Both the position numbers and the translations under genes were made by a program. DNA of 50,347 bases, from contig JAUSCU010000018.1 in the NCBI GenBank assembly GCA_030651065.1, positions 1 through 50,347 of the forward strand. The letters are read 5' to 3'. Below the pieces are notes generated by a model. That model was not told where the DNA came from and did not search any database. It was given only the letters and a program-made list of their open reading frames with translations. How positions within the stretch are numbered: position 1 is the stretch's first letter; the number at the start of each line of letters is the position of its first letter. Positions 2,326 through 39,112 of the stretch are shown one piece after another. The DNA is from Candidatus Omnitrophota bacterium. GTDB taxonomy: Bacteria; Omnitrophota; Gorgyraeia; 1-14-0-20-64-10.

Positions 2326-4485
2326 ATGTACCGCCGCCTGACCCCCTGGATCCTCACCATCCTTGCCGTCGCCGGGCTGGCGGTCTGGTCCGCCTTCCCG
2401 CTGAAAGAAAAGATCTCCCTCGGGCTCGATCTCCAGGGCGGGATGCACCTGATCCTCAAGGTGGACACGGCGAAGCTGCCGCCCGAGGCGCGGGCCGACG
2501 CGGCGGAGCGGGCGCTGGAGGTTATCCGCAACCGGATCGACCAGTTCGGGGTGAAGGAACCGTCGATCCATCAGCAGGGGAAAGATGAGATTGTGGTCCA
2601 GCTGCCGGGTATCACCGACCGGGAGCGGGCGCTGGCAATCGTCCAGCAGGTGGCCCACCTGGAGTTCCGGATGGTCAGCGCCGACCCCGAGCTGCTCAAA
2701 AAAGCGATTGCCGGGGAGATGGTGGACGGCTACGAGGTCGTCCGGGATGCGCAAGGGGAACCGTACCTTCTGGAAAGACAAGTCCCGCTGACCGGTGAGG
2801 GGCTGGCCAACGCCCATGTGGACTACGGGCAGTTCGGATCGCCGGAGGTGAGCTTTGCGCTGACGCCGGCAGGGTCCAAGGTCTTCTCGCAGTTGACGGC
2901 GTCCAACATCGGCCGGCGGCTGGCGATCGTGCTGGACGGCCGCGTGAAATCGGCGCCGGTCATCCAGGGCCAGATCTCCGACCAGGGACAGATTACCGGC
3001 CGCTTCACGCAGCAGGAGGCGCTGGATTTGGCCCTCGTGCTCCGGAGCGGCGCGCTGCCGGCCCCTCTGGTCGTCGAGGAGGAGCGGACCATCGGCCCGC
3101 TGTTGGGCAACGACTCGATCCGGGCCGGCGTCAAGGCAACCGGGATCGGCATCGGGATGGTCTTCCTCTTCATGGCCGTCTACTACCTGCTGCCGGGGCT
3201 GATCGCCTGCACGGCCCTTGCGCTGAACCTGCTGTTGATCCTCGGCGGCTTGGCCCTGTTCCACGCCACGCTGACACTGCCCGGTATCGCCGGCATCGTG
3301 CTGACGCTCGGTATGGCGGTGGACGCGAACGTCCTCATCTTCGAACGGATGCGGGAGGAGCTGAAGCTCGGCCGAACGATCCGCCAGGTGATCACCAACG
3401 GCTACGACCGTGCCTTCTCAGCGATCCTGGACTCCAACCTCACCACCGTGCTGGCGGCGTTTCTGCTGTTCCAGTTCGGCACCGGCCCGATCCGGGGTTT
3501 CGCGGTGACCACGGTGATCGGTCTGACCGCCAGCATGTTCACGGCGGTGGTGGTCACGCGAGTCATCTTCGAGGCGCTGCACCGGGCTAAGATGCTCCCT
3601 CAGATCCGGATGCTTCATCTGATTGGCCAGACAAAGCTGGATTTCCTGAAACCACGGAAGATCTGCTACGTCATCTCGCTGTTGTGCGTGGTGGGGGGGC
3701 TGGGCTACTTCTCAACGCTCGGGAGCCGTGCCTACGGCATCGACTTCTCCGGCGGCCAGATCCAGCAGTACCATTTCCAGAAGCCGGTGCCGATGGATTC
3801 GGTTCGCTCGGCGGTGCGGGATGCCGGCGTGCAGGACGCCTCGCTGCAGCAGTTCGGCCAGCCCAACGACGTGATGATCCAGACCGGCGGCGATACCGTG
3901 AAGGAGGTTCAGGAGAAGCTGAGGGCCTCTTTCCCGGACAACCCGCCGGAACTGGTCCGGGTGGAGCAGGTGGGCCCTTCGGTGGGGAAGGATTTGAGCA
4001 AGCGGGCGCTCCAGGCAATCTTCTGGGCCCTCGTTTCGATCAGTCTCTACGTCGGTTTCCGGTTCCGTTCCTGGTCTTTCGGCGTGGCCGGCATCGTGGC
4101 GCTGCTGCACGACGTGCTGATCGCGCTGATCGCGCTGGCGATCACCGGCCGGCCGGTTTCGCTGACACTGATCGCCGCTTTCCTGACGATCGCCGGCTAT
4201 TCGATCAACGACACGATCGTGATCTACGACCGGATCCGGGAGCTGCGCCGCACCGCCCGCAAGATGCCGTTCTCGGAGCTGATCAACCTGGCCTTGAACC
4301 AAACACTCTCCCGGACTCTCTTGACCTCCGGCGTCACGCTGCTGACGGTGGTCTCTCTCTTTATGTTCGGCGGCGACATCCTGAACGACCTCGCTTTCGC
4401 GCTGGGGGTCGGTTTCATCTCCGGCGTTTATTCCACCGTCTACATCGCCACCCCGCTGCTTCTTCTTTGGGAGAAGAAGCGCTAA
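2326..4485 (+). CDS. secDF: fused protein-export membrane protein SecDF
   Basis: 719 aa. SecD-like periplasmic head and 6 TM, then a second SecF-like module (GIDFSGG..., LHDVLIALIALA, YSINDTIVIYDRIRE). Canonical position after yajC. Confidence 0.9.
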   Translation: MYRRLTPWILTILAVAGLAVWSAFPLKEKISLGLDLQGGMHLILKVDTAKLPPEARADAAERALEVIRNRIDQFGVKEPSIHQQGKDEIVVQLPGITDRERALAIVQQVAHLEFRMVSADPELLKKAIAGEMVDGYEVVRDAQGEPYLLERQVPLTGEGLANAHVDYGQFGSPEVSFALTPAGSKVFSQLTASNIGRRLAIVLDGRVKSAPVIQGQISDQGQITGRFTQQEALDLALVLRSGALPAPLVVEEERTIGPLLGNDSIRAGVKATGIGIGMVFLFMAVYYLLPGLIACTALALNLLLILGGLALFHATLTLPGIAGIVLTLGMAVDANVLIFERMREELKLGRTIRQVITNGYDRAFSAILDSNLTTVLAAFLLFQFGTGPIRGFAVTTVIGLTASMFTAVVVTRVIFEALHRAKMLPQIRMLHLIGQTKLDFLKPRKICYVISLLCVVGGLGYFSTLGSRAYGIDFSGGQIQQYHFQKPVPMDSVRSAVRDAGVQDASLQQFGQPNDVMIQTGGDTVKEVQEKLRASFPDNPPELVRVEQVGPSVGKDLSKRALQAIFWALVSISLYVGFRFRSWSFGVAGIVALLHDVLIALIALAITGRPVSLTLIAAFLTIAGYSINDTIVIYDRIRELRRTARKMPFSELINLALNQTLSRTLLTSGVTLLTVVSLFMFGGDILNDLAFALGVGFISGVYSTVYIATPLLLLWEKKR

Positions 4486-13753: not shown

Positions 13754-14932
13754 CTACGAGCGCGGCCGGAAAAGGCCGAGGCTCGCCGTGAAGCCGTGGA
13801 TGTAGTTGCGCGGTCCGATCGGCCCGATCTCCCCGTTGCAGAAGAAGCCGGCGACGGGACAGCCGGGCCCGACCGCCTCCCGGATCATCCGGACATCCAC
13901 GTCGGGCTCCCCGTAGAGGTCCCGGCCGCGGCCGAGGCAGCTGAACAGCAGCCCGCCGCTGAATCCGGACTTGGGCAACGAGCCCTGGCCGAGCAGGGTC
14001 TGGAGGTCCTCGCGTGAGGTGCCGGCGTCCCGCACGTGGAACTGCACGGTTTGGCCGGTCTGGATCTTGTCTCCCACGGCTAGCGCCCCCACGGAAGGAT
14101 CCATGCCGATGAGGTTCCGGATCAGGAAATCCCCCCGCTGGAACTTTTCCTTGTACTCGTCCATCACCACCCCCAGCAGCAGCGCCTGCCGGGCCAGCTT
14201 CTTATCGGCTTCCGACAGCTCGCCGTAGAGCTGCTGGAGCGTATTCATAGCCGGCTGGCCGGCCAACTCCAGGATCACGTTCTCCTCGGCCCGGGTGATG
14301 ATGTAGGGCCGGCCGACCGGCCGGCAGCCCTGCGAGACCACGGTTTCGAGCCGGATGTCGCCGGTCAGCAGAAGACCGACCGCTCCTTCCGGGACAATAT
14401 CGTCGTTGAAGAAGAGGGCGTTGCCGCCGGCTTCCGAAGCCCCGCTGGCTAAACCCCCAATGAGCGGCATCTTGGGATAAACAGCGTTTAAACCCGAGAC
14501 CAGCCCCATGCAATCGCAGCTGAACGGGTCCGGCAGCAGGATGCCGGAGGGCTCTTCTTTTGGGTTGACGCCGGTCTTCTCGATCCAAAAGCCCGGCTCC
14601 TGTTGTTCCGCCAATTCCTGAGGGGTGACGGTAAACGGATGCAGTTTCACGCCCGGTAGATGGGCCAGGGAGAGCGAGAGGGCCGGCGCATGCTCCAACT
14701 CTTTTCCGGCTCCCAGCACTCCGCCGGCGGTGCAGCCGAGCAGCAGCGGCGAGCCCAGCTCCTTCCGGAGCCGGCGCAGCAGCGGTTGCCACTCGGTCCG
14801 GTACAGGCCGGAGACGAACAGGAAAGCGGCATGTGCCGGTTTGCCCTGCAGGGAGGGGAGGGCTTGGGCGGCCGCGGCCTCAAGGGCTTTCGAGGGATCG
14901 GTTTGGTCGGAGATTCCGGCGGCAAAAAGCAT
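13754..14932 (-). CDS. FIST-domain (FIST_N + FIST_C) sensory protein
   Basis: 392 aa. The overall pattern and the C-terminal ...GFFCNGEIGPIG... are characteristic of FIST_C. No output domain is fused. Confidence 0.65.
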   Translation of the reverse strand: MLFAAGISDQTDPSKALEAAAAQALPSLQGKPAHAAFLFVSGLYRTEWQPLLRRLRKELGSPLLLGCTAGGVLGAGKELEHAPALSLSLAHLPGVKLHPFTVTPQELAEQQEPGFWIEKTGVNPKEEPSGILLPDPFSCDCMGLVSGLNAVYPKMPLIGGLASGASEAGGNALFFNDDIVPEGAVGLLLTGDIRLETVVSQGCRPVGRPYIITRAEENVILELAGQPAMNTLQQLYGELSEADKKLARQALLLGVVMDEYKEKFQRGDFLIRNLIGMDPSVGALAVGDKIQTGQTVQFHVRDAGTSREDLQTLLGQGSLPKSGFSGGLLFSCLGRGRDLYGEPDVDVRMIREAVGPGCPVAGFFCNGEIGPIGPRNYIHGFTASLGLFRPRS

Positions 14933-27568: not shown

Positions 27569-28593
27569 CCCTACCGAAGCCGAGGGCAAGAATCGCCCTC
27601 GACGGGATGGGGGGAGACCGGGCGCCGGGTGCCGTTGTGGATGGGGCGGTTCAAGCGGCTCGCTCTCTTGACGTCGAGCTGGTCCTCATCGGGCAGAAAG
27701 ACCGGCTCCAGAAAGAGCTGGACCGCTTTCAGCCGCTTCCTCCCAACCTGCGCGTGCAGCACGCCTCCGAGGTGATCAAGATGGCCGAATCCCCGGCCGT
27801 CAGCGTCCGGAAGAAGCCGGATTCCTCTATCTGCCAGATGGTGGAGCTGGCCAAGCGGGGGGAGGTGGACGCCATTGTCAGCGCCGGCAACACCGGCGCG
27901 GTGGTTTGCGCCGCCAGCCTTGGGTTAGGCCTTCTCCAGGGGATTGAGCGGCCCGGTATCGCGGTGGTGATCCCATCGCTGCGCGGCCCGGTGATGGTGA
28001 TCGACGTGGGTGCCAACATCGGGCCGAAACCGGAGCACCTCTTCCAGTACGGCGTCATGGGGTCGATCTACATGCGCCACGTCCTGGAGATCGATAATCC
28101 GGCCGTGGGGTTGTTGAACATCGGCGAAGAAGAATCCAAGGGCACCGACTTCCTGAAAGCCGCTTTCAAACTGCTGGAAGAATCCTCCGTCAACTTCGTC
28201 GGCAACATCGAGGGCCGCGACATCTATTCCGGAAAATGCCACGTCGTCGTGACCGACGGGTTCGTCGGCAACGTGGCACTCAAGGTGTCGGAAGGGATCG
28301 CTTTTACCCTGGCCGAACTGCTCAAGCGGGAGCTGAAAAGAACCCTCTGGAACAAGTTCGGCGCGATGCTGCTGCTGCCGGCTTTCCAGCGGCTGAAGAA
28401 GCAGATGGATTACGCGCAGTACGGCGGGGCGCCGCTCTTGGGGGTCCAGGGGGCCTGTTTCATCTGCCACGGCTCCTCCTCCGCCCGGGCCATCCGCAAC
28501 GCCGTGGCCTCCGCCGCGATGTTCGTCACGCACGGCGTTAACCAGGCGATTCTCGATTCCTCGCATGAATTGCGGAGGGCCTCGGTCGCATGA
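27565..28593 (+). CDS. plsX: phosphate acyltransferase PlsX
   Basis: RIALDGMGGDRAP..., SAGNTGA, VTDGFVGNV. The only canonical start near the conserved N-terminus is the TTG at 27565, which overlaps the rpmF stop (TTGA). Confidence 0.88.
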   Translation: MTLPKPRARIALDGMGGDRAPGAVVDGAVQAARSLDVELVLIGQKDRLQKELDRFQPLPPNLRVQHASEVIKMAESPAVSVRKKPDSSICQMVELAKRGEVDAIVSAGNTGAVVCAASLGLGLLQGIERPGIAVVIPSLRGPVMVIDVGANIGPKPEHLFQYGVMGSIYMRHVLEIDNPAVGLLNIGEEESKGTDFLKAAFKLLEESSVNFVGNIEGRDIYSGKCHVVVTDGFVGNVALKVSEGIAFTLAELLKRELKRTLWNKFGAMLLLPAFQRLKKQMDYAQYGGAPLLGVQGACFICHGSSSARAIRNAVASAAMFVTHGVNQAILDSSHELRRASVA

Positions 28594-29570
28594 CTCAGCC
28601 GGTCGGGTTCCTTGGTCTCGGCTTTTACGTTCCGCAGCGGGTGATGACCAACGCGGAATTGGAGAAGCTGGTCGAAACCTCCGACGAATGGATCCGCACT
28701 CGGACCGGCATCTCCGAGCGGCGGATCGCCGCCGAGGGCGAGAACACCAGCGACCTGGCCCTGAAGGCCACCCAGGCCGCGCTGCAGGATGCCAAGCTCA
28801 AACCCACCGATCTGGACCTGCTCCTCGTGGCCACGATGACGCCGGACATGCCCTGTCCATCGACCGCCTGCATCCTGCAGGCGAAGCTGGGGGCGCCGCA
28901 GGCGGCCGCCATGGACGTGGCCGCCGCCTGTTCCGGCTTCCTCTTTGGGCTCGTCATGGCCCAGCAATTCGTGGCCAGCGGCACTTACAAGCACGTGCTG
29001 GTAGTCGGTGCCGAGGTACTGTCGCGCGTGGTGGACTGGACCGACCGGGGCACCTGCGTGCTGTTCGGCGACGGAGCGGGGGCCGCCGTGATCGGCCGCA
29101 CCGCGCAGGGCAAAATTCTTTCGACCATTCTCGGATCGGACGGCACGAAGGTGGACTTGCTGAAGGTTCCCGGCGGCGGAACGGCCCAGCCGGCTTCCAT
29201 CCAATCGGTCGAGGCGCGCGCGCATTTCCTCAAGATGAACGGCACCGAAGTGTTCAAGCACGCGGTGCGCGGCATGGCAGACGCCGCGCATGAGGCGATC
29301 CGGCGGGCCGGCATCCAGCCGGAACAGGTCACCTGCGTGGTCCCGCATCAGGCCAATGTTCGGATCATTGAGGCGGTGGTGAAGAAGGCCGGTATCCCTA
29401 TGGAAAAGGTTTTCCTGAACGTGGATCGCTACGGAAATATGTCGGCCGCTTCCACGATCGTCGCCCTCTGCGAGGCGGTCCAGTCGGGCCGGATCAAGAA
29501 GGGGGATTATGTCCTGCTGGTCGTCTTCGGCGCCGGCCTCACCTGGGGCGCCGCCGTCCTTCAGTGGTAG
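28590..29570 (+). CDS. fabH: 3-oxoacyl-ACP synthase III
   Basis: TSDEWIRTRTGI, active-site AACSGF, PHQAN and GNMSAAS motifs. Confidence 0.92.
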   Translation: MTQPVGFLGLGFYVPQRVMTNAELEKLVETSDEWIRTRTGISERRIAAEGENTSDLALKATQAALQDAKLKPTDLDLLLVATMTPDMPCPSTACILQAKLGAPQAAAMDVAAACSGFLFGLVMAQQFVASGTYKHVLVVGAEVLSRVVDWTDRGTCVLFGDGAGAAVIGRTAQGKILSTILGSDGTKVDLLKVPGGGTAQPASIQSVEARAHFLKMNGTEVFKHAVRGMADAAHEAIRRAGIQPEQVTCVVPHQANVRIIEAVVKKAGIPMEKVFLNVDRYGNMSAASTIVALCEAVQSGRIKKGDYVLLVVFGAGLTWGAAVLQW

Positions 29571-31357
29571 TTCCTTCGTTCGACCGTCCGACCCGCCTGC
29601 TGGTCCTGATCGGTTTCCTCCAAGGCTCTCTTCTCTTCTGGATGCACAAGCTGCTGGAATGGCACGCCTGGCCGTCCACCAAGCCTTCTGTGCTTATCAC
29701 CTGGTACACGCTCGTGTTCGCGGTTCCGCTGGCATTGCAGCTAATGGCAGACCATCTCGTTGAATCCCGGGCCTGGAAATTCGCCGCCGGTCTGGCGGGG
29801 ACGCTGGCCGTTTTGAGCGTTTACACGGCCCGGACCGTCTTTCCGGGCAGCGGAACGAGTCCGGATGCTTTCTTTGAGTCTGGGGCCTACTTCATTCCCA
29901 CAGTGGTGCTGGCTTGGTACGTGGTTCTCCCCTTCGCCCAGGCTTGGCTTAAGAACAAGCAGGCCCGCTTCCCGTACCCGGACCTCTTTCAGTTTTCCTG
30001 GAACAATATCCTGGTCATCCTGACCGCAGGGTTTTATACCTCGCTTTTCTGGGGGTCCTTGGCGTTGTGGGCGTCTATGTTCAAAATCATCCACATTGAT
30101 TTTTTCGCGGAGCTGTTCACGGAGACCTGGTTTATCTATCTGGTGACCGGCGGCGTGTTCGGGTTCGCTTTGGCGAACGGGCGCTCACAGAAAGGGCTCG
30201 TGACCAATCTGCGCACGACGATGTTGGTGATGTTCCGGAACCTCCTTCCGCTGCCGGCTTTCATCGCGCTGATTTTCCTGGCGGCGCTGCCGTTTGCCGG
30301 CCTTCAGCCGTTATGGGACACCAACCATGCCACGCTGTTGATGCTCAACCTGCAGCTCTACGTCGTGTTCTTTCTGAACGCCGTGTACCAGGACGGCCGC
30401 CAGGAGACTCCCCCGTACCCTCTTCCGGTCCGCTTCCTGGTGGAGGCCGGCGTGATTGTTCTGCCGGTCTATTCGGCACTGAGCTTTTACGCGCTCGGGC
30501 TTCGGGTCGCCCAGCATGGATGGTCCGTCAGCCGGGTTTTCGCGGCGCTGGCCGTCTTCATCATGGCCCTCTACGTCACCGGTTATGCCCGGTCAATATT
30601 GAGATGGGAATCACCCTGGATGAAGGGTGCCGCGCGGATAAACGTCCGGATCGCGGCGGTAGTGATCGCATTGGCGGTGCTGGTCAACACGCCGATCTTG
30701 GACCCGCGACTGATTACGGTCCGCAGCCAAGTGGCGCGGCTCAAATCGGGTGCCGTGAGTGCCGAGAAGTTCGATTATGACTACTTCCGGTTTTTGCTGG
30801 GCAAGCCGGGGCGGGACGCGCTGGTCCGGTTAGCCAAGCTGGAGGGACACCCCCAGGCGGAAACGATCCGGTCAAAGGCAGCCGCCGCTCTGGACAAAAA
30901 GAACCGCTGGGAAAATCCAGCCACCGGGGTCCAAACGGTGGAAGAGCTGGAGAAAGGGATGAAATTATTTCCTTCCGGAAAGGTTTGGGACCGGAGTTTC
31001 CTGGAATTTCTATTGGAAGGAAAAGAAGCCTATAGGCACTATTGGGTTGGCGGCCGGGTGTTGGCCGTCGATTTAAATAAGGATTCCGCGGAGGAGTACG
31101 TCCTCTTCAAGCCTTATCATCACGGCCAGAATCTTCTCTTCGCGCGCACGGAGACCGGATGGAAAGAAGTCGGCCGCCTTGTTTCGGCGGACTCTGATTT
31201 TCAGGACGCCAACTTCGAAAAACAGCTTTCAAACTGCCAGGTCCTCCTCTCGCAATGGAATGAATTGCGAATTGGGGAGCAGACATACCAAGTGTTTCCA
31301 AAATCGTCCGATACGACGCAACCCGGCCCGGACATCCCAATGACGTCTATTGATTGA
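29564..31357 (+). CDS. polytopic membrane protein with C-terminal soluble domain, unknown function (possibly DUF4153-like)
   Basis: 597 aa: about 10 hydrophobic segments over the first 370 aa, then a hydrophilic tail of about 220 aa. The GTG start overlaps the fabH stop by 7 nt, and the stop overlaps the fabD ATG by 1 nt. The family guess is from memory only. Confidence 0.5.
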   Translation: MVVPSFDRPTRLLVLIGFLQGSLLFWMHKLLEWHAWPSTKPSVLITWYTLVFAVPLALQLMADHLVESRAWKFAAGLAGTLAVLSVYTARTVFPGSGTSPDAFFESGAYFIPTVVLAWYVVLPFAQAWLKNKQARFPYPDLFQFSWNNILVILTAGFYTSLFWGSLALWASMFKIIHIDFFAELFTETWFIYLVTGGVFGFALANGRSQKGLVTNLRTTMLVMFRNLLPLPAFIALIFLAALPFAGLQPLWDTNHATLLMLNLQLYVVFFLNAVYQDGRQETPPYPLPVRFLVEAGVIVLPVYSALSFYALGLRVAQHGWSVSRVFAALAVFIMALYVTGYARSILRWESPWMKGAARINVRIAAVVIALAVLVNTPILDPRLITVRSQVARLKSGAVSAEKFDYDYFRFLLGKPGRDALVRLAKLEGHPQAETIRSKAAAALDKKNRWENPATGVQTVEELEKGMKLFPSGKVWDRSFLEFLLEGKEAYRHYWVGGRVLAVDLNKDSAEEYVLFKPYHHGQNLLFARTETGWKEVGRLVSADSDFQDANFEKQLSNCQVLLSQWNELRIGEQTYQVFPKSSDTTQPGPDIPMTSID

Positions 31358-32277
31358 TGACCCCCTTCGCGTTGTTGTTTCCCGGCCAAGGGGCGCAGTC
31401 GGTTGGGATGGGCAAGGAGCTGGCGGAGGCGTTCCCGATCGCCCGCGCCCGATTCGATGAGGCCGATTCCATTCTGGGCTATTCTTTAAGCAAGCTTTGC
31501 TGGGAAGGCCCGGCAGAGGAGCTCACCCGCACCGAGCATTGCCAGCCGGCTCTTTATGTCACCTCGATGGCGGCTCTCGCCGCGCTGGAATCCTTGGGCC
31601 CCGTGAAACCCTCCGCCGCGGCCGGCTTGAGCCTCGGCGAGTACACAGCGCTGGCCGCGGCCGGAGCCGTGAGCTTCGCCGATGGATTGAAACTGGTCCG
31701 GCTGCGGGGCCAGGCGATGGAGGAGGCGGCCCGGGCTCGCCCGGGTACGATGGCCTCCGTGCTGGGGCTTGATCTGGAGCAGCTCCAAGGGGTCTGCGCG
31801 GAGACCGGTGCTCAGGTGGCCAACCTCAATTCGCCGGGGCAGGTGGTGATCTCCGGCACCGCCGAGTCGGTGGCTGCCGCCTCCGCCAAGGCCAAGGAGA
31901 AGGGGGCCAAGCGGGTGATCCCGCTGGAGGTGGGGGGCGCGTTTCATTCCCGGCTCATGGAGCCGGCCGGCCTCCGGCTCCGGCAGGGGCTTCAGAGTTT
32001 TGCTGTCCAGGCTCCCCGCTATCCGGTGGCCAGCAACGTGACCGGCGCTTACCACGGAGACCCGGCCCAGATCCGGGAGCTGCTGGTCCGGCAGCTGACC
32101 GAACCGGTGCAGTGGATCGCCTGCGTTCGGACGATGGCGGAGAAAGACATCAAGACCTATGTAGAGGTAGGCTCCGGGACCGTGCTCAAGGGGTTGGTTC
32201 GGAAGATCGACCCCGAAGCGGCCGTCTATTCGGCCGGCACGCCGGAGGAAATTCGAGGGTGGAGATTCGAAGCTTGA
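31357..32277 (+). CDS. fabD: malonyl-CoA:ACP transacylase
   Basis: FPGQGAQSVGMG, GLSLGEYTAL (active-site Ser), GAFHS. Confidence 0.9.
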   Translation: MTPFALLFPGQGAQSVGMGKELAEAFPIARARFDEADSILGYSLSKLCWEGPAEELTRTEHCQPALYVTSMAALAALESLGPVKPSAAAGLSLGEYTALAAAGAVSFADGLKLVRLRGQAMEEAARARPGTMASVLGLDLEQLQGVCAETGAQVANLNSPGQVVISGTAESVAAASAKAKEKGAKRVIPLEVGGAFHSRLMEPAGLRLRQGLQSFAVQAPRYPVASNVTGAYHGDPAQIRELLVRQLTEPVQWIACVRTMAEKDIKTYVEVGSGTVLKGLVRKIDPEAAVYSAGTPEEIRGWRFEA

Positions 32278-32581: not shown

Positions 32582-33829
32582 GTGCAGAAACGCCGCCGAG
32601 TCGTCGTGACCGGCCTGGGAGTGATCTCGCCGGTAGGGAACACGCTTCAAGAAGCCTGGTCTTCCCTCGTTCAGGGAAAGACCGGTGCCGGCCCGCTCAC
32701 TCTTTTTGACGCCTCGAAGTATCCCACCCGCTTCGGGGCGGAAGTAAAGAACTTCGACCCCGCGCTCTACCTCACTCCCAAGGAGTCCAAGCACTCCGAC
32801 CGGTTCGTTCAGTTCGCGGTGGCCGCCGCCAAGCAAGCGGTGGCCGACGCCAAGCTGGACATGTCCAAGGAGGATGCGTCCCGTGTCGGCGTCTGGATCG
32901 GCACCGGCATGGGGGGCCTCTCCACTATCGAGGAGGGCTACCGGGACCTGCAGACCCGGGGCCCGGCTAAGGTGCGCCCCTTCTTTATCCCGATGATCAT
33001 CTGCAACATGGCATCCGGACAGGTCTCGATCAACCTGGGGGCCAAAGGTCCCAACTCTTGCACGGTCAGCGCCTGCGCCTCCAGCGCCCACGCGATCGGC
33101 GACGCGCTCGAAATCATTGACCGTGGGTCCGCCGACGTGATGATTGCCGGTGGGTCTGAATGCGCGATCACGATGCTGGGTGTGGCCGGTTTCTGCGCGC
33201 TCAAAGCCCTTTCCACCCGCAACGACGATCCAAAGACGGCCAGCCGGCCGTTCGACAAGACCCGCGACGGTTTCGTGATCGCCGAGGGGGCCGCCATGCT
33301 GGTGCTGGAGGAGTTGGAGCACGCCAAGGCGCGCGGCGCTCACATCTACGGCGAGCTGATCGGCTACGGGATGACCGGAGACGCGTACCACATCACGGCT
33401 CCGGACCCGGACGGCACGGGGGCTGCCGGCGCCATGAAGATGGCGCTGGAGGATGCCGATCTCTCGCCCAAAGACATTTCCTACATCAACGCGCACGGCA
33501 CCTCCACAAATCTCAACGACAAGATCGAAACCAAGGCGATCAAAATGGTCATGGGGGACCAGGCCCACAAGATCCCTGTCAGCTCCACCAAGTCGGTGAC
33601 CGGCCACCTGCTGGGGGCCGCTGCCGCCATCGAGTTTGTCGCCTGCTGCATGGCGATCAAGGACCAGATCATCCCCCCCACCATCAATTACACGACGCCG
33701 GACCCGGAGTGCGACCTGGACTACGTTCCGAACGAGGCCCGCAAGGCAAAGATCTCCGTCTGCCTCAGCAACTCGCTCGGTTTCGGCGGCCACAACGTTT
33801 CTCTGATCGTCAGGAAATTCGAGGGCTAA
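32582..33829 (+). CDS. fabF: 3-oxoacyl-ACP synthase II
   Basis: RRVVVTGLG, active-site ACASS, HGTSTNLND, GHLLGAAG, NSLGFGGHN. Confidence 0.93.
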   Translation: MQKRRRVVVTGLGVISPVGNTLQEAWSSLVQGKTGAGPLTLFDASKYPTRFGAEVKNFDPALYLTPKESKHSDRFVQFAVAAAKQAVADAKLDMSKEDASRVGVWIGTGMGGLSTIEEGYRDLQTRGPAKVRPFFIPMIICNMASGQVSINLGAKGPNSCTVSACASSAHAIGDALEIIDRGSADVMIAGGSECAITMLGVAGFCALKALSTRNDDPKTASRPFDKTRDGFVIAEGAAMLVLEELEHAKARGAHIYGELIGYGMTGDAYHITAPDPDGTGAAGAMKMALEDADLSPKDISYINAHGTSTNLNDKIETKAIKMVMGDQAHKIPVSSTKSVTGHLLGAAAAIEFVACCMAIKDQIIPPTINYTTPDPECDLDYVPNEARKAKISVCLSNSLGFGGHNVSLIVRKFEG

Positions 33830-34597
33830 ATGCTGCTGCAAGGCAAAAAAGGTTTGATCGTCGGCGTTGCCAACAAGCGCTCCATCGCTTGGGCCATCGC
33901 GCAGGCCGCCCACCGGGAAGGGGCTCAACTGGCCTTCACCTATCAGGGGGAGCGGCTCAAGGAATCGGTCGGGGAGCTGGCCGCCGGCCTGGGGGGCAGC
34001 TCTCCTTTATATGAGTGCGACGTTACCAACGACGCGCAGATGGACCAGGTCTTTGCCGGCATCAAAAGCGCCTGGGGAAGCATGGATTTCCTGGTGCACG
34101 CGGTCGCTTTCGCCAAACGGGAGGAGTTGGAGGGGGATTTCCTCCCGACCTCCCGGGAAGGATTCCGGCTGGCGCTGGACGTCTCGGCCTACAGCCTGAC
34201 GGCGCTGGCCCAGCGCGCGGTGCCCCTCATGACCGACGGCGGCAGCATCGTGGCCCTCACCTACTACGGCGCCGAAAAGGTAATCCCCCGGTACAATATC
34301 ATGGGGGTGGCCAAGTCGGCCCTCGAGGCCTCCATCCGCTACCTGGCATTCGACGTCGGCCCCAAGAAGATCCGGGTCAACGGTCTTTCCGCCGGGCCGG
34401 TCCAGACCTTGGCCGCCCGCGGCATCTCCGGGTTCACCGATATGATGAAGATCGTGGAGGGGAAGGCCCCCCTGCGGCGCAACGTCCAGATCGAAGAGGT
34501 GGCCAACGCGGCCGCCTTCCTGCTTTCCCCCCTCTCCTCCGGTATCACCGGGGAGATCCTCTACGTGGATTGCGGCTACAACATCCTCGGGATGTAA
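33830..34597 (+). CDS. fabI: enoyl-ACP reductase (NADH), FabI type
   Basis: [23 protein letters not shown]......[12 protein letters not shown] (Y-x6-K), GPVQTLAA. Confidence 0.9.
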
Positions 34598-34630
34598 TTT
34601 GTTAGTAGTAACATCTTTTAGTTACAGATC

Positions 34631-34660
34631 TTGACGTTTCGGTCAGTTACAGGCCATACT
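34631..34660 (+). promoter_or_regulatory. possible sigma70-like promoter TTGACG-18 nt-CATACT, facing the 280-nt element
   Basis: Lies in the AT-rich spacer after fabI. The -35 is 5/6 and the -10 is 4/6 to consensus. It would start transcription about 10-15 nt before 34679. Confidence 0.3.
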
Positions 34661-34678
34661 TAATTTGAGCGGCATTTT

Positions 34679-34958
34679 AGAGCCGGCTTCGCAACCTCGC
34701 GTGAACCGCATTGCGAGTGCCGGGCCGCTGGATTCAAGGAACGACGACGACGGCGTATCCACGGGGCGATACGCCGAGGAGGAGTGACGCTGAAGACGGC
34801 GGCCCGCCACCGCAACCCGAAGGGCTGGGCGGATTTGCTTCGTTGCGCTGCGTTGCTCGTCGTCGACGTAGTGCTGGGTCGACTACGCCTCCTCCTCGCG
34901 CCTTGCGCGACTCGCAACTGCGCCCAGTGCGGCCACGGGAGGTTGTGAAACCGGCTCT
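34679..34958 (+). other. 280-nt GC-rich element closed by a 20-position terminal stem: candidate structured ncRNA or MITE
   Basis: agagccggcttcgcaacctc (34679-34698) pairs with gaggttgtgaaaccggctct (34939-34958): 18 Watson-Crick pairs, 1 G-U, 1 C-A. Further internal helices are listed in the findings, and the apex at about 34819 is the exact midpoint. No convincing ORF. Strand not established. Confidence 0.5.
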
Positions 34959-35008
34959 TATGCGCTTTTTCTTTTGTAGGCTTCTTTAAGGGTTCAACAA
35001 AGGGGTGA

Positions 35009-35542
35009 ATGAGAATGAATAAGCGGTGGGTGATGGGGATGGCGATGGCGCTAAGCTTGGGCGGAGCCTGCCCGGCGATGGCGGCCACCTCACTCCCGGA
35101 GCCTGAAAAAGAGCTTACCGAGAAGATGGAGAAACAGATGCTGGAGTTCGTTCGGAACAACTACCCCCACCGGATGACCAGCGCGGTCAGGAGCATGCAG
35201 AACCAGGAAAGCAAGCTCCGGAAGACTCTGACGGAGGCCGCGCAGTTTTTTGAAGGGTTTGCCGTGGGCCCGGTCCGAATGGAAGGTCGATGGGAAGGGA
35301 CCGGATGCGGCGCCCGGTACATGCTCCTGAGCGTGGTACGCGGCGTGCAGAATTACCCGAACGCGACCGTTTCCTTTAAGACGTATCCCGGCCTGTTCCG
35401 GCCGTTCACCGTGGTGCAGGTGGACGCCGACAGCGACGGAAAAGTGGAGGAACAGTCCACCGCGCTTTGTAAACGGGAAAAAATGCTGGAGTGGCTCTCC
35501 GAGCGGTTCCCCCAGGCGGTCTGCCTGGTCCGCAAGAAGTAA
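35009..35542 (+). CDS. exported hypothetical protein
   Basis: 177 aa with signal peptide ...MALSLGGACPAMAAT. AAAGGGG RBS. No recognisable family. Confidence 0.5.
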   Translation: MRMNKRWVMGMAMALSLGGACPAMAATSLPEPEKELTEKMEKQMLEFVRNNYPHRMTSAVRSMQNQESKLRKTLTEAAQFFEGFAVGPVRMEGRWEGTGCGARYMLLSVVRGVQNYPNATVSFKTYPGLFRPFTVVQVDADSDGKVEEQSTALCKREKMLEWLSERFPQAVCLVRKK

Positions 35543-35553
35543 ATTTTCTCCGC

Positions 35554-35582
35554 TTGACATTCCGTCTTCCTTCTGCATAATT
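35554..35582 (+). promoter_or_regulatory. sigma70-like promoter for smc: TTGACA-16/17 nt-CATAAT(T)
   Basis: TTGACA at 35554-35559 and CATAAT at 35576-35581. GAAGGAGG RBS at 35598-35605 and the GTG start at 35609. Confidence 0.45.
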
Positions 35583-35608
35583 ATGTCTACTCCCCGAGAA
35601 GGAGGAGT

Positions 35609-38600
35609 GTGCGATTTAAAAAACTAGAACTTCTCGGATTCAAATCATTTGCTGAACAGACCGAGCTGATCTTTGAGCCCGGTGTCACCGCAGTCGTGGG
35701 TCCAAACGGCTGCGGTAAGTCTAATGTCGCCGACGCCATTAAGTGGGTGCTCGGTGAGCAGTCCCCCCGTGAGCTGCGCGGCGGGCGGATGGAGGACCTT
35801 ATCTTTAACGGGTCCGACCGCCGCGAGCCGATCCATTTTGCCGAAGTCTCCCTGACGCTCGACAACTCCGAGAAGAAACTCCCCATTGATTTCGCCGAGG
35901 TGGTTATCTCCCGGCGCCTGTTCCGAAACGGTGAGAGCGAATACCTCCTCAACCGCAGTGCCGTCCGCCTGAAAGACATCCAGGAAATGCTGATGGGCAC
36001 CGGCATCGGCACCTCGGCCTATTCCCTCTTTGAGCAGGGACGCATCGAGCAGCTCATCAGCGCCCGGCCTGAGGACCGCCGCGTCGTTTTTGAAGAGGCG
36101 GCCGGTATCACCAAGTTCAAATCCCAAAAACGGGAAGCGATGCGCCGCCTGGAGGAAACGGAAGAGAACCTCGCCCGCGTCAGCGACGTGATCGCGGAGG
36201 TCAAGCGCCAGACCCAGGCGCTGGACCGGCAGGTGCGGCGCGCGAAGGCGTACCGGGAGCAGATGGAGGAGCTGAAAAAACTGGAGGTGGGTCTGGCCCG
36301 TCAAGAGCAGGGCCGGCTGGCCGCCCTCTGGCAAGAGAAGGAAGCCTCCCTTCAGGCGTTCCGGCAGGAACTTTCCGGGCTCGAAGAGCAGGCGGCCGGA
36401 CAGGAATCTTCTTTAGCACAAGCACGCGGACAGGGTTCGGAAGCGGAGGAGTCTTTCTCTCGGGCGAGGGAGGGGCTGCTGGCGGTCACCCACCGGCAGG
36501 AAGCGGGGCGGAACAATCTGCAAGTGAACCGGGAGAGGATCGCCGAGGGGCAGAACCGGTCCGAATCGGCCCGGGAGGAGATTGCCGGGGCGGAGAAACA
36601 GCTGGGCCAGCTTCAGGAGCAGATCCGGCAGCTGCGGGTACTGGTAGGGCAGGAAGAGGAAGAGCGCCTCTCCAAAGAGGGACAGATCACTCGGTGGGAA
36701 ACCCAGTTGGCCGGCTGCGCCCGGATGATTGATGAGGCGCAGGCGGTGATCGGCCAAGCGCGCGAACAGCTGCTGGATCTGACCGGGTCGGAGGTGCAGG
36801 TCAAGAACCAGTTGGCCCGGGTCCGGCAGGAGAGCGCCCGGCTGGAGGCGCGGGCCGGCCGCTTGCAGGCGGAAAACGGAAAGGTTTCCCATGAGCAGCA
36901 GGAGGCCGGTTCCAAGGTGGAGAACCTGCGGGACAGCCTGCTGCAGATCCGCGCGGTAATGGAACAACTTGAACGGGAAAGGACCATCTGCCAGGAGAGT
37001 CTGGCTTCCACCGACCTTTCGCTGGAAGATTCGGAACGGGAGACCGGCAGCTTGGGCGCCGAGCTGAACCGGGTCGGTTCGCGGTTGGAAGCGCTCAAAG
37101 GGCTCATGGACAACCATGAGGGCTACTCCAGCGGTGTTAAGGCCCTGCTCAAAGCAATGGACGAAGGGATTGTCGCGCGGGAAGGCGTCAATGGGGTGCT
37201 GGCGGAATTGATTCATGTGGACCGGAACGACATGGCGGCTGTGGATGCCGCCTTAGGGCCCTGGGCCGAGGCGGTTGTCGTGGATTCTGCTTCGGCGGCC
37301 CAACGGTGCCGGCAGTTTCTGGAGAGCTCCGCGGCCGGCCGCGTCCTCTTTTTGATCCGGGACCAGGTCCCGAACCCTCTTCCGGAGCCGGATCCCTCGA
37401 GTGCCGTCGCCCTTCTGGACCGGGTCGGGATTACGCCGCACCTGCAGCCCCTGCTTCAGCTGATCTTGTCGGACGATTGGTGGGTCTTGCTGGGGCCGAC
37501 GCCGCCGGAAGAGGCGATGCTGGTCGGCCGGGCGAGCCGCCTGCAGTCGCTGGAGATTTCCAACGCGCACCTGCAGGGGAAACTGGAAGAGGCTCGAGGC
37601 CGGCTGGCGTCGCTCGAAGAGCAGCGGCGGGAGCAGGCCCAGGCGCTGGCCACGTTGGAAGAGGTTGCCGATTGGAAAGGGCAGGAACTCCACCGCGCCG
37701 AAGCGATGTTCGGCTCCGCTCAGGCGGATTCGGACAAGCTGCGGCAGGAGATGGAGGTCCTGAAAACCGAAGAGACGGAAACCTCGGTCGATCTCCGGGA
37801 GATCCACACCGAACTGGAGCGTTGGGAGAAGGAGCTCGCGGTCAAGGAACAGCAGTTGGAATCCCACCAGTCGGCGATCCGGCAGGGGCAAGAGACGATT
37901 GCCGCCGCCGGCCGGCAGCGGGAAGAGGTTTCCGTGGCGCTGGCCGGGGCGAAGGGGGAGCTGGCCTCTTTGGATGAAGTGGCCGCCAGCCGGCGCTCCT
38001 CGCTGCAGGTGCTGGAGCAGTCGGTGGAATCCCTCGAGGCCCGCGCTCAAGAGCGGCGCGCGGAGCTGGCGCAGCTGGAACTTCGGCAGGCGCAGCTGGA
38101 AGAGGCTTGCGTCCGGATCGAGCAGGAACTGGCCGGCCTGGAGATGGAACTTTCGCGCGTCCAGGCGCAGGCCGATGAGGCCGCGCGGCGCCGCGAAGAG
38201 GCCCAGCGGGCGGCCCAGGAACAGGAGCAGGAGTTCCTGCAGGTGCGCCGGCGGCTGGACCAGCTTCAGTCGAAACTGCACGCGCAGGAGATGGAGCAGG
38301 CGCAGTTGACCTTCCAGAAGGAGCAGATAGGCACTCGCCTGCTGCAGATATACCAGATCAACTTGGATGAGATGCCGGAGGAGCTGGCGGAGCCGGACGC
38401 GGCGGAGCCCGACCCGGAGCAGATGCGCGCGCGGGCGGAGGAGCTGTCTCAGAAGCTTCAGAAGATGGGGCCGGTGAACCTGGCTTCCATCGAGGAGGAG
38501 AGGGAACTGCAGAACCGTTTCGAGTTCTTAAGCGCCCAGCAGGCCGATTTGACGAAAGCCAAGGACGACATCCATGAGGCGCTCACGAAGATCAGCCGGA

Positions 38601-39112
38601 CCACGCGCGCGATGTTCCGGGAAACCTTCGAGGCGATCCATAAGGAGTTCCAGGGTACGTTCAAGCAGCTGTTCGGGGGTGGCGAGGCGCGGCTGGTGCT
38701 GATGGACGAGGAGGACCTGCTGGAGAGCGGCATCGAGATCATCGCTCGTCCGCCCGGGAAGCCGCTTCAGCCGATCTCCCTGCTCTCCGGCGGTGAGAAG
38801 GCGCTGACCGCGATCGCGCTCCTGTTCGCGATCTTCAAGATCAAGCCGAGCCCCTTCTGCCTGCTGGACGAGATCGACGCGCCGCTTGATGAGGCCAACG
38901 TGGACCGGTTCACGCGGGCGCTCAAGGAATTCCTGAAGGACTCGCAGTTCATCATCATCACGCACAACAAGAAGACGATGGGCATGGCCGACGTGATGTA
39001 CGGCGTCACGATGCAGGAGATGGGGGTTTCGAAGATCGTTTCAGTGAAGTTTAAGAAGGACGGGACAGATCCCACGCAGCAGCAACTGCAGCCAGTAGTA
39101 TCGCGCAACTAG
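35609..39112 (+). CDS. smc: chromosome partition protein Smc
   Basis: FKSFA......F..G.TAVVGPNGCGKSN (Walker A), long coiled coils, a central hinge (GVNGVLAELI), C-terminal LSGGEKALTAIALLFAI and FCLLDEIDAPLD. Confidence 0.93.
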   Translation: MRFKKLELLGFKSFAEQTELIFEPGVTAVVGPNGCGKSNVADAIKWVLGEQSPRELRGGRMEDLIFNGSDRREPIHFAEVSLTLDNSEKKLPIDFAEVVISRRLFRNGESEYLLNRSAVRLKDIQEMLMGTGIGTSAYSLFEQGRIEQLISARPEDRRVVFEEAAGITKFKSQKREAMRRLEETEENLARVSDVIAEVKRQTQALDRQVRRAKAYREQMEELKKLEVGLARQEQGRLAALWQEKEASLQAFRQELSGLEEQAAGQESSLAQARGQGSEAEESFSRAREGLLAVTHRQEAGRNNLQVNRERIAEGQNRSESAREEIAGAEKQLGQLQEQIRQLRVLVGQEEEERLSKEGQITRWETQLAGCARMIDEAQAVIGQAREQLLDLTGSEVQVKNQLARVRQESARLEARAGRLQAENGKVSHEQQEAGSKVENLRDSLLQIRAVMEQLERERTICQESLASTDLSLEDSERETGSLGAELNRVGSRLEALKGLMDNHEGYSSGVKALLKAMDEGIVAREGVNGVLAELIHVDRNDMAAVDAALGPWAEAVVVDSASAAQRCRQFLESSAAGRVLFLIRDQVPNPLPEPDPSSAVALLDRVGITPHLQPLLQLILSDDWWVLLGPTPPEEAMLVGRASRLQSLEISNAHLQGKLEEARGRLASLEEQRREQAQALATLEEVADWKGQELHRAEAMFGSAQADSDKLRQEMEVLKTEETETSVDLREIHTELERWEKELAVKEQQLESHQSAIRQGQETIAAAGRQREEVSVALAGAKGELASLDEVAASRRSSLQVLEQSVESLEARAQERRAELAQLELRQAQLEEACVRIEQELAGLEMELSRVQAQADEAARRREEAQRAAQEQEQEFLQVRRRLDQLQSKLHAQEMEQAQLTFQKEQIGTRLLQIYQINLDEMPEELAEPDAAEPDPEQMRARAEELSQKLQKMGPVNLASIEEERELQNRFEFLSAQQADLTKAKDDIHEALTKISRTTRAMFRETFEAIHKEFQGTFKQLFGGGEARLVLMDEEDLLESGIEIIARPPGKPLQPISLLSGGEKALTAIALLFAIFKIKPSPFCLLDEIDAPLDEANVDRFTRALKEFLKDSQFIIITHNKKTMGMADVMYGVTMQEMGVSKIVSVKFKKDGTDPTQQQLQPVVSRN

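Follow-up and report, generated by a model that had tools for sequence, protein, structure and literature searches.

A probable MITE with an unusually well preserved fold in the orf177–smc leader of a Candidatus Omnitrophota genome

Prokaryotic MITEs are defined as elements shorter than 500 bp that have terminal inverted repeats (TIRs) of 4–30 bp, are flanked by direct repeats and give transcripts with stable stem-loops (PMC10969869). Families such as Correia/NEMIS of Neisseria, ERIC and QMITE2 of Coxiella carry no transposase, occupy intergenic positions in multiple copies and are typically AT-rich (PMC10969869). In the Bacillus cereus group, bcr1 is a small MITE-like mobile repeat of ~155 bp whose branched, 'cruciform-like' fold is kept by compensatory changes (PMC3184786); it is flanked by 5-bp direct repeats, its transcription is established, and the conservation is reported to act at the level of RNA. 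A MITE of Porphyromonas gingivalis bears a minisatellite (PMC4596501). PIF/Harbinger and IS5 elements produce 3-bp duplications (PMC4122938), and insertion sequences (ISs) of the IS427 group have repeats of 13–21 bp and 2-bp duplications (PMC3281130).

In a 50,347-nt stretch of DNA from a Candidatus Omnitrophota bacterium (hereafter the window), we analysed a GC-rich intergenic segment that had been predicted to be either a novel structured RNA or a MITE. The element at 34680–34957 is very probably a MITE, that is, a non-autonomous cut-and-paste DNA transposon with imperfect 25-bp TIRs that encodes no protein (Table 1). It is 278 bp long, contains no transposase gene, ends in TIRs next to a flanking direct repeat and is polymorphic for presence and absence, and these features fit the published definition. 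Like the families named above, it is intergenic and has multiple copies across genomes and metagenomes, and its transcript is predicted to form a stable stem-loop. Unlike them, it has an overall GC content of 65%, which counts against the interpretation as a MITE, and its interior branches at a three-way junction instead of forming a simple rod. No sequence similarity to the MITE families compared was seen, and the element has so far been seen only in uncultured bacteria from groundwater and sediment-type environments. The element belongs to no known Rfam family; it represents a MITE family with an unusually well preserved fold among scattered copies. The branched fold with compensatory changes is shared with bcr1, from which the element differs in its length, in its 3-bp TWA flanks and in showing no strand preference. 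A 3-bp duplication at an A/T-rich target is shared with the IS5 superfamily and its MITEs (IS1031/IS427; PIF/Harbinger, Tourist-type). In contrast to that superfamily, no transposase or full-length IS with the termini of the element was found, and the derivation from it is putative.

Table 1. Coordinates of the element and of the host leader around it (window positions unless a contig is named)
Feature	Position	Strand	Description and basis
Probable MITE body	34680..34957	+ (arbitrary; copies in both orientations)	278 bp, GAGCCGG...CCGGCTC
Left terminal inverted repeat, 5' strand of closing stem P1	34679..34703	+	25 nt; inverted-repeat search
Right terminal inverted repeat, 3' strand of P1	34934..34958	+	25 nt; P1 (helix 1) paired in 95.8% of cells
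Target-site duplication, left copy TTA	34677..34679	.	Sequence
Target-site duplication, right copy TTA	34958..34960	.	Sequence; direct, not inverted, repeat of 34677-79
Left arm P2	34710..34815	+	Long imperfect hairpin, tip GGCGTATC/GATACGCC at 34752-34775; MFE, covariation
Central mini-hairpin CCC-GAA-GGG at the three-way junction	34816..34824	+	Stem invariant in 6/6 copies
Right arm P4	34825..34928	+	Inner hairpin CGTAGT/ACTACG at ~34865-34889; inner part less certain
Promoter-like TTGACG-18-CATACT, host feature	34631..34660	+	Kept in L030, L031, L033 and L034, all without the element
Leader hairpin, 5' half, host feature	34667..34675	+	Small conserved hairpin; element in its loop
Leader hairpin, 3' half (34960-67), and T-run TTTTTCTTTT (34966-75), host feature	34960..34975	+	GCGCTTTTTCTTTT invariant
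orf177–smc leader	window 34598-34675 and 34960-35008; L030 1510-1650; L031 1040-1205; L033 3131-3290; L034 3872-4015		

Boundaries of the element and the empty site in relatives

The two arms are 88% complementary over their 25 nt. They contain the 20 terminal positions of the original prediction, with the 18 Watson-Crick pairs, one G-U and one C-A pair counted there, and extend beyond them. When the terminal 20-mer was searched with up to three mismatches, the arms were its sole matches in the 50 kb (expected number 0.00). The predicted contrast in composition is also present: over 100-nt segments the GC content is 58–68% in the element and ~43% in the flanks. The open reading frames that cross the element on both strands are found as described, and so are the TTA trinucleotides at both ends. 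No open frame is kept across the copies of the element, and a protein search with its longest open frame gave no matches.

The end motif of the element is TWA-GAGCCGGYTTCRCAACC. Comparison of copies with both ends shows flanks of TTA/TTA in the window and in locus L011, and of TAA/TAA in L003. The remaining three copies have one mismatch each (TAA/TAG in L008, TAA/TAT in L015, TCA/TAA in L017). The duplication is hence perfect in only 3 of 6 two-ended copies, which counts against the interpretation as a MITE. The middle base of the flank repeats directly in five of the six, which argues for a duplication and not for an extension of the inverted repeats. The junctions follow the pattern T-W-A / GAGCC...GGCTC / T-W-A, with TWA present at 14 left and 7 right junctions; judged from these sequences, the target duplication is a 3-bp TWA. 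Identity among the copies is 92% at the termini against ~77% in the interior.

To find relatives of the locus, we used metagenome homologues of orf177, the gene that follows the element, and compared their contigs with the window. In the closest relative (L030, orf177 87% identical), positions 1–1589 match window positions 33089–34677 with 89.7% identity, and positions 1593–2608 match 34962–35988 with 89.0% identity. The orthologous site comprises 3 nt in L030 and 284 nt in the window. Removal of the 278-bp body and one TTA from the window leaves GCATTTTATGCGC, which has the same length as the corresponding GCATTTCGGGCGC of L030. The empty site reads CGG rather than TTA in this relative, a point against the interpretation as a MITE. 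Three further relatives (L031, L033 and L034) have the promoter-like block, the leader hairpin and the T-run contiguous, with the element absent. The direct repeats on both sides, together with the precise empty site, show an insertion. The syntenic presence in relatives that was to be expected of an RNA gene is thus contradicted at all four loci. The MITE alternative offered in the original prediction is right: besides the precise empty site, it agrees with the dispersed copies in another genome, the two orientations and the deletion derivatives described below. In the window, the element inserted at a TTA and duplicated it. Its family marks recent transposition and is usable as a strain-level marker.

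Dispersed copies and the source of mobility

We scanned 185,579 species genomes for AGAGCCGGYTTCRCAACCTC, and metagenomes likewise, with the search of these large collections covering the exact 20-mer only. The species genomes yielded two loci, L008 and L011, each with a pair of inverted matches separated by 260 nt. Both belong to one Candidatus Omnitrophota MAG, nzgw285 (JAHFFE01), where they lie on different contigs. Identity is 96% between the two copies and 78% between each of them and the window copy. The two have opposite orientations and unrelated flanks, one being located between lytB and a T2SS ATPase gene and the other between mgtE and a secretin gene. The check for extra copies that accompanied the original prediction therefore has a mixed outcome: the window contains only one copy, which counts against a MITE, and multiple copies exist elsewhere, including the two in this MAG. 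Several copies occur within single metagenomes as well.

In addition to L008 and L011, full-length homologues are found at L014 and L023. The L014 copy, recovered in the metagenome scan, is 322 nt long owing to a 45-nt insertion and adjoins hisG. The L023 copy is cut by the contig end and lies upstream of a FIST gene. The protein encoded there shares 64% identity with the FIST protein of the window (13754–14932); no element is present beside the window's own FIST gene. A 159-nt derivative (L017) has a deletion between the internal direct repeats CCGGCTTCGCAACC and CCGCCACCGCAACC. In L019, a truncated right end abuts a 45-nt tandem array, which replaces the interior. This array (L019 1–205) comprises 4.6 copies of the unit CACTTGTAATCTCCGAGTCGTGGCTGCGGCCAAAGGAGGCCGCAC with 97% matches, and the contig starts inside it. 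The array resembles the minisatellite-bearing MITE of Porphyromonas gingivalis, which is unrelated in sequence and host; no array is present in the window copy. Three contigs (L023, L025 and L027) end inside the element, as is expected of repeats; the L025 contig holds a left end that is cut off in this way.

Solo ends were found at L022 and L026. Together with L009, these loci hold isolated copies of the terminal repeat, 23–26 nt long and without a recognisable partner (L022 4573–4597, L026 381–403, L009 858–883). Those of L022 and L026 are flanked by TTA or TAA and are positioned just past stop codons, ahead of promoter-like sequences, and that of L009 has a TCA flank. Such isolated copies may be remnants of excision or deletion.

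Two shorter elements share the 20-nt termini and the TWA flanks and have unrelated interiors: a 186-nt element in a Bradymonadales MAG (L003 6018–6203) and a 121-nt element (L015 24–144). Common termini around different interiors are expected if one transposase mobilises several MITE families, and these sequences suggest that a single enzyme may serve several families across phyla. The Omnitrophota copies and the Bradymonadales MAG with the same termini add a MITE family from little-studied groundwater lineages.

Exact matches to the 20-mer were also encountered in other contexts. Five loci (L016, L020, L021, L024 and L029; for example L021 141–2458) contain three different group II introns, with matches to the Rfam D1-D4-7 and domain V/VI models. 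The C-terminus of the intron-encoded protein, ...LEVVKPAL, is encoded there by exactly GAGGTTGTGAAACCGGCTCT, the 20-mer of the terminal repeat, which is conserved among group II introns whose neighbouring codons differ. A link between these introns and the element was considered and rejected: the 20-mer is coding in the introns, the window element has no intron domains, and the identity was treated as a coincidence. By chance, ~4 matches are expected in a large collection (2 strands × 596 Gb × 4 variants / 4^20), and the number of unrelated ones seen was close to this. The matches in the group II introns and those inside other genes are therefore attributed to coincidence.

Movement would take place in trans, through a DDE transposase for which the conserved termini are the binding sites. 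In the ISfinder tables, the IS1031 group is listed with 'GAG' ends and 3-bp repeats. With its 3-bp TWA duplication and GAG ends, the element would be a substrate of an IS5-superfamily enzyme (IS1031/IS427 groups, PIF/Harbinger-related); a 2–3-bp duplication at a TA/TWA target, as in IS5-type elements, is seen here. No transposase is present in the 50-kb window. The window, 37 fetched loci, plasmids and viral contigs yielded no parent IS and no transposase with matching ends, and this counts against the interpretation as a MITE. A search of all loci for paired 13-mer ends 60–4000 bp apart returned only the MITEs and weak chance pairs. A candidate parent IS at L003 was checked and rejected, and the open reading frame beside the solo end of L026, considered as a transposase, encodes an HTH_17/DUF6922 protein. 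Plasmids searched with the whole element and a 34-nt end gave only one chance match of 23 nt in a nuclease gene. Viral contigs searched with an 18-mer end gave two chance matches in unrelated sequence.

The fold and its compensatory evolution

Folded as RNA, the plus strand of the element reaches a minimum free energy (MFE) of -160.9 kcal/mol, compared with -123.0 ± 5.9 for its shuffles (z -6.4), and the minus strand reaches -153.6 kcal/mol (z -7.6). The fold as DNA has a value of -89.2 (z -5.6). The native sequence was more stable than every shuffle, both as RNA of either strand and as DNA, so the non-random folding expected from the original prediction holds on both strands. The MFE structure and the RNAalifold consensus agree in a three-way junction composed of the P1 stem, the left arm, the central mini-hairpin and the right arm (Table 1).

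The left arm (P2, helix 2) contains 36 pairs, 9 of which are changed on both sides among the copies, and is paired in 94.4% of cells. Its tip hairpin, which had been predicted, has a folding energy of -11.7 kcal/mol. The predicted CCC-GAA-GGG hairpin is present near the midpoint of the element, and its loop varies among GAA, TTC and AAA. The basal helix of the right arm (P4, helix 4) has 12 pairs with 5 changed on both sides, and the inner hairpin of this arm shows a compensatory change from T-A to C-G (alignment columns 236–262). For two other predicted helices, ttgcgagt/actcgcaa (34711–18 with 34910–17) and ccgcc/ggcgg (34804–08 with 34828–32), the complementarity is real, but the helices are absent from both the MFE and the consensus structure. 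Their bases pair instead inside the separate left and right arms, and it is on that arrangement that the covariation sits.

Standard pairs occupy 91.0% of the cells in the six copies, a percentage somewhat favoured by the derivation of the structure from the window sequence, compared with 34–47% when the 3' partners are slid by 1–3 columns. The counts of pairs changed on both sides are less affected by this derivation: there are 17 such pairs, against 1–4 after sliding and 8.7 ± 2.0 in shuffles, none of which, out of 500, reaches 17. Paired and unpaired columns of the interior are equally diverged (76.5% and 77.8% identity, respectively), which means that the stems change at the rate of the loops, but do so coordinately. 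Compensatory substitutions maintain the fold as the copies diverge. This is not the outcome expected from simple neutral decay of dead copies, and the strength of the compensatory evolution thus counts against the interpretation as a MITE. The maintenance implies that the fold matters for propagation or for tolerance after insertion. G-U and A-C cells occur with about the same frequency in the well-supported helices, and neither transcribed strand is therefore favoured as the selected form. Selection on the folded DNA, selection on both transcripts and template-switch correction of quasi-palindromes are possible sources of this pattern.

Two triplet segments of the left arm match segments of the right arm: (ACG)4 at 34741–52 is complementary to 34858–69 at 11 of 12 positions, and (GAG)3 at 34775–84 to 34889–98 at 10 of 10. 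The matches cross the nested helices in order, and the segments are among the best-conserved interior sequences. We considered a pseudoknot composed of these two pairings (A:A' and B:B') and rejected it: it crosses covarying helices, and its own changes are only one-sided. Two compensatory events (columns 65/109 and 69/105 of alignment A4) favour the nested pairing over the pseudoknot. The complementarity of the triplet segments could reflect a tertiary contact, an alternative conformer or protein-binding sites.

It is conceivable, though we consider it rather unlikely, that the three-way-junction fold is itself the selected unit and that the element is one of a family of mobile structured nucleic acids in which the shape is specifically required. 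One role of the fold would then be in mobilisation, through joining of the ends or recognition of the element as folded single-stranded DNA. Another would be an RNA function in transcribed leaders and terminator loops, where the element would rebuild a larger terminator or attenuator, as upstream of smc. If the fold is selected in this way, the crossing triplet segments could form a double-crossover-like tertiary contact or bind proteins. Taken as a MITE, the element, with its compensatory evolution at ~22% divergence, provides a tractable case for asking why some MITEs, like bcr1, keep their fold; a requirement of transposition, tolerance by the host and exaptation as RNA are candidate reasons.

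The orf177–smc leader and alternative explanations

The element is located between fabI (33830–34597) and orf177, a gene for a 177-aa signal-peptide protein (35009–35542) that is followed by smc (35609–39112). Upstream of fabI are fabF, acpP, fabD, a DUF4153 gene and fabH, and the rest of the window consists of core housekeeping genes (tgt, secDF, recJ, typA, mutS, mutL, recG, plsX, ribBA and ribD). The leader of orf177–smc is conserved across five related genomes (Table 1). It contains a conserved promoter-like block, GTAACA..TTTAG.TA..TCTTGAC-N18-CATACT, and ~15 nt further on a small GC hairpin that has an A-rich 5' flank and the invariant GCGCTTTTTCTTTT; GGGCTTCTTTGAGGGTTCAAAAA and the start codon follow. 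GCGCTTTTTCTTTT is invariant in 5 of 5 loci, with or without the element. The hairpin is intact in the element-free relatives and has a folding energy of -20.3 kcal/mol in L033 (z -4.65). The location of a terminator-like hairpin right behind a promoter is suggestive of attenuation or of a very short leader RNA.

The target of the insertion was the loop of this small terminator-like hairpin, between the promoter-like block and the ribosome-binding site of orf177–smc. In a fold of positions 34662–34980, the two halves of the leader hairpin pair with the entire element enclosed between them, immediately ahead of the U-run. Here the element is predicted to be co-transcribed from the host promoter-like site, and it would enlarge the hairpin that precedes the U-run, with a putative effect on the expression of orf177–smc. 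The insertion in the loop of a conserved hairpin is a natural experiment on the function of the leader.

The original prediction favoured a stand-alone novel structured RNA gene of ~290 nt, transcribed from the TTGACG-18-CATACT promoter and ended by the TTTTTCTTTT terminator. Both signals are present, and the position of the element between them, its very stable fold, the compensatory covariation in two arms and the lack of a known Rfam family agree with such a gene. However, the four relatives without the element also have the promoter-like block and the T-run, conserved and next to each other, and these are thus features of the host leader rather than signals of the element. Other copies lie in both orientations between unrelated genes, without promoter-like or T-run signals; no transcribed strand is favoured by the mismatches in the helices; and the flanking repeats and the empty site mark an insertion. 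A dedicated RNA gene is therefore not supported, and we judge it very unlikely. The annotation loses one false candidate for a novel non-coding RNA gene, and the case illustrates that a promoter and a T-run beside a striking fold can belong to the host. Extremely unlikely, too, is a cis-regulatory leader (a riboswitch or an attenuator) that evolved to control orf177–smc. The element does lie in the 5' leader, ~50 nt upstream of the start codon, and forms with its host flanks a giant hairpin extending right up to the U-run, yet L030, L031, L033 and L034 have this leader without the element, which elsewhere adjoins lytB, T2SS ATPase, mgtE, secretin, hisG and FIST genes. At gathering thresholds, Rfam has no matches in the window and none on the element copies in 14 loci, as the prediction of no known family had it. 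The sole similarity, to sucA in a permissive scan, is taken as chance (21.6 bits, with the gathering score at 40; E = 0.12).

Mobility of another kind would be expected of a hairpin repeat moved by a single-strand (HUH) transposase, such as REP/BIME with RAYT, or palindromes derived from IS200/IS605. The extensive hairpins on both strands and in DNA, the conservation of the fold without strand preference and the insertion in a hairpin loop are all compatible with this. To our knowledge, REP/BIME and IS200/IS605-type elements have no long terminal inverted repeats and no target duplication, whereas the element has 25-nt TIRs with direct TWA flanks on both sides; furthermore, none of the copy neighbourhoods examined contains a Y1 or RAYT gene. 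We give this explanation very little credence. An inverton, that is, a segment bounded by inverted repeats whose orientation a site-specific recombinase switches, would account for the 25-nt inverted repeats around ~230 bp in a promoter-proximal intergenic region and for copies in both orientations. But the two orientations are found at different loci, no recombinase gene is nearby, no promoter-like site lies within the element, and neither presence/absence polymorphism nor a target duplication is a property of invertons, so that the element is almost certainly not one.

Two further observations concern the genes around the leader. L033 carries, between fabI and the promoter block of orf177, an inserted PemK/MazF-like toxin gene (2789–3130; Pfam E = 9e-24). 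In the window, the gene for the DUF4153 membrane protein (597 aa, 29564–31357) lies inside the fatty-acid synthesis cluster and overlaps both fabH (28590–29570) and fabD (31354–32277) by a few bases, an arrangement that is the same on contig L001.
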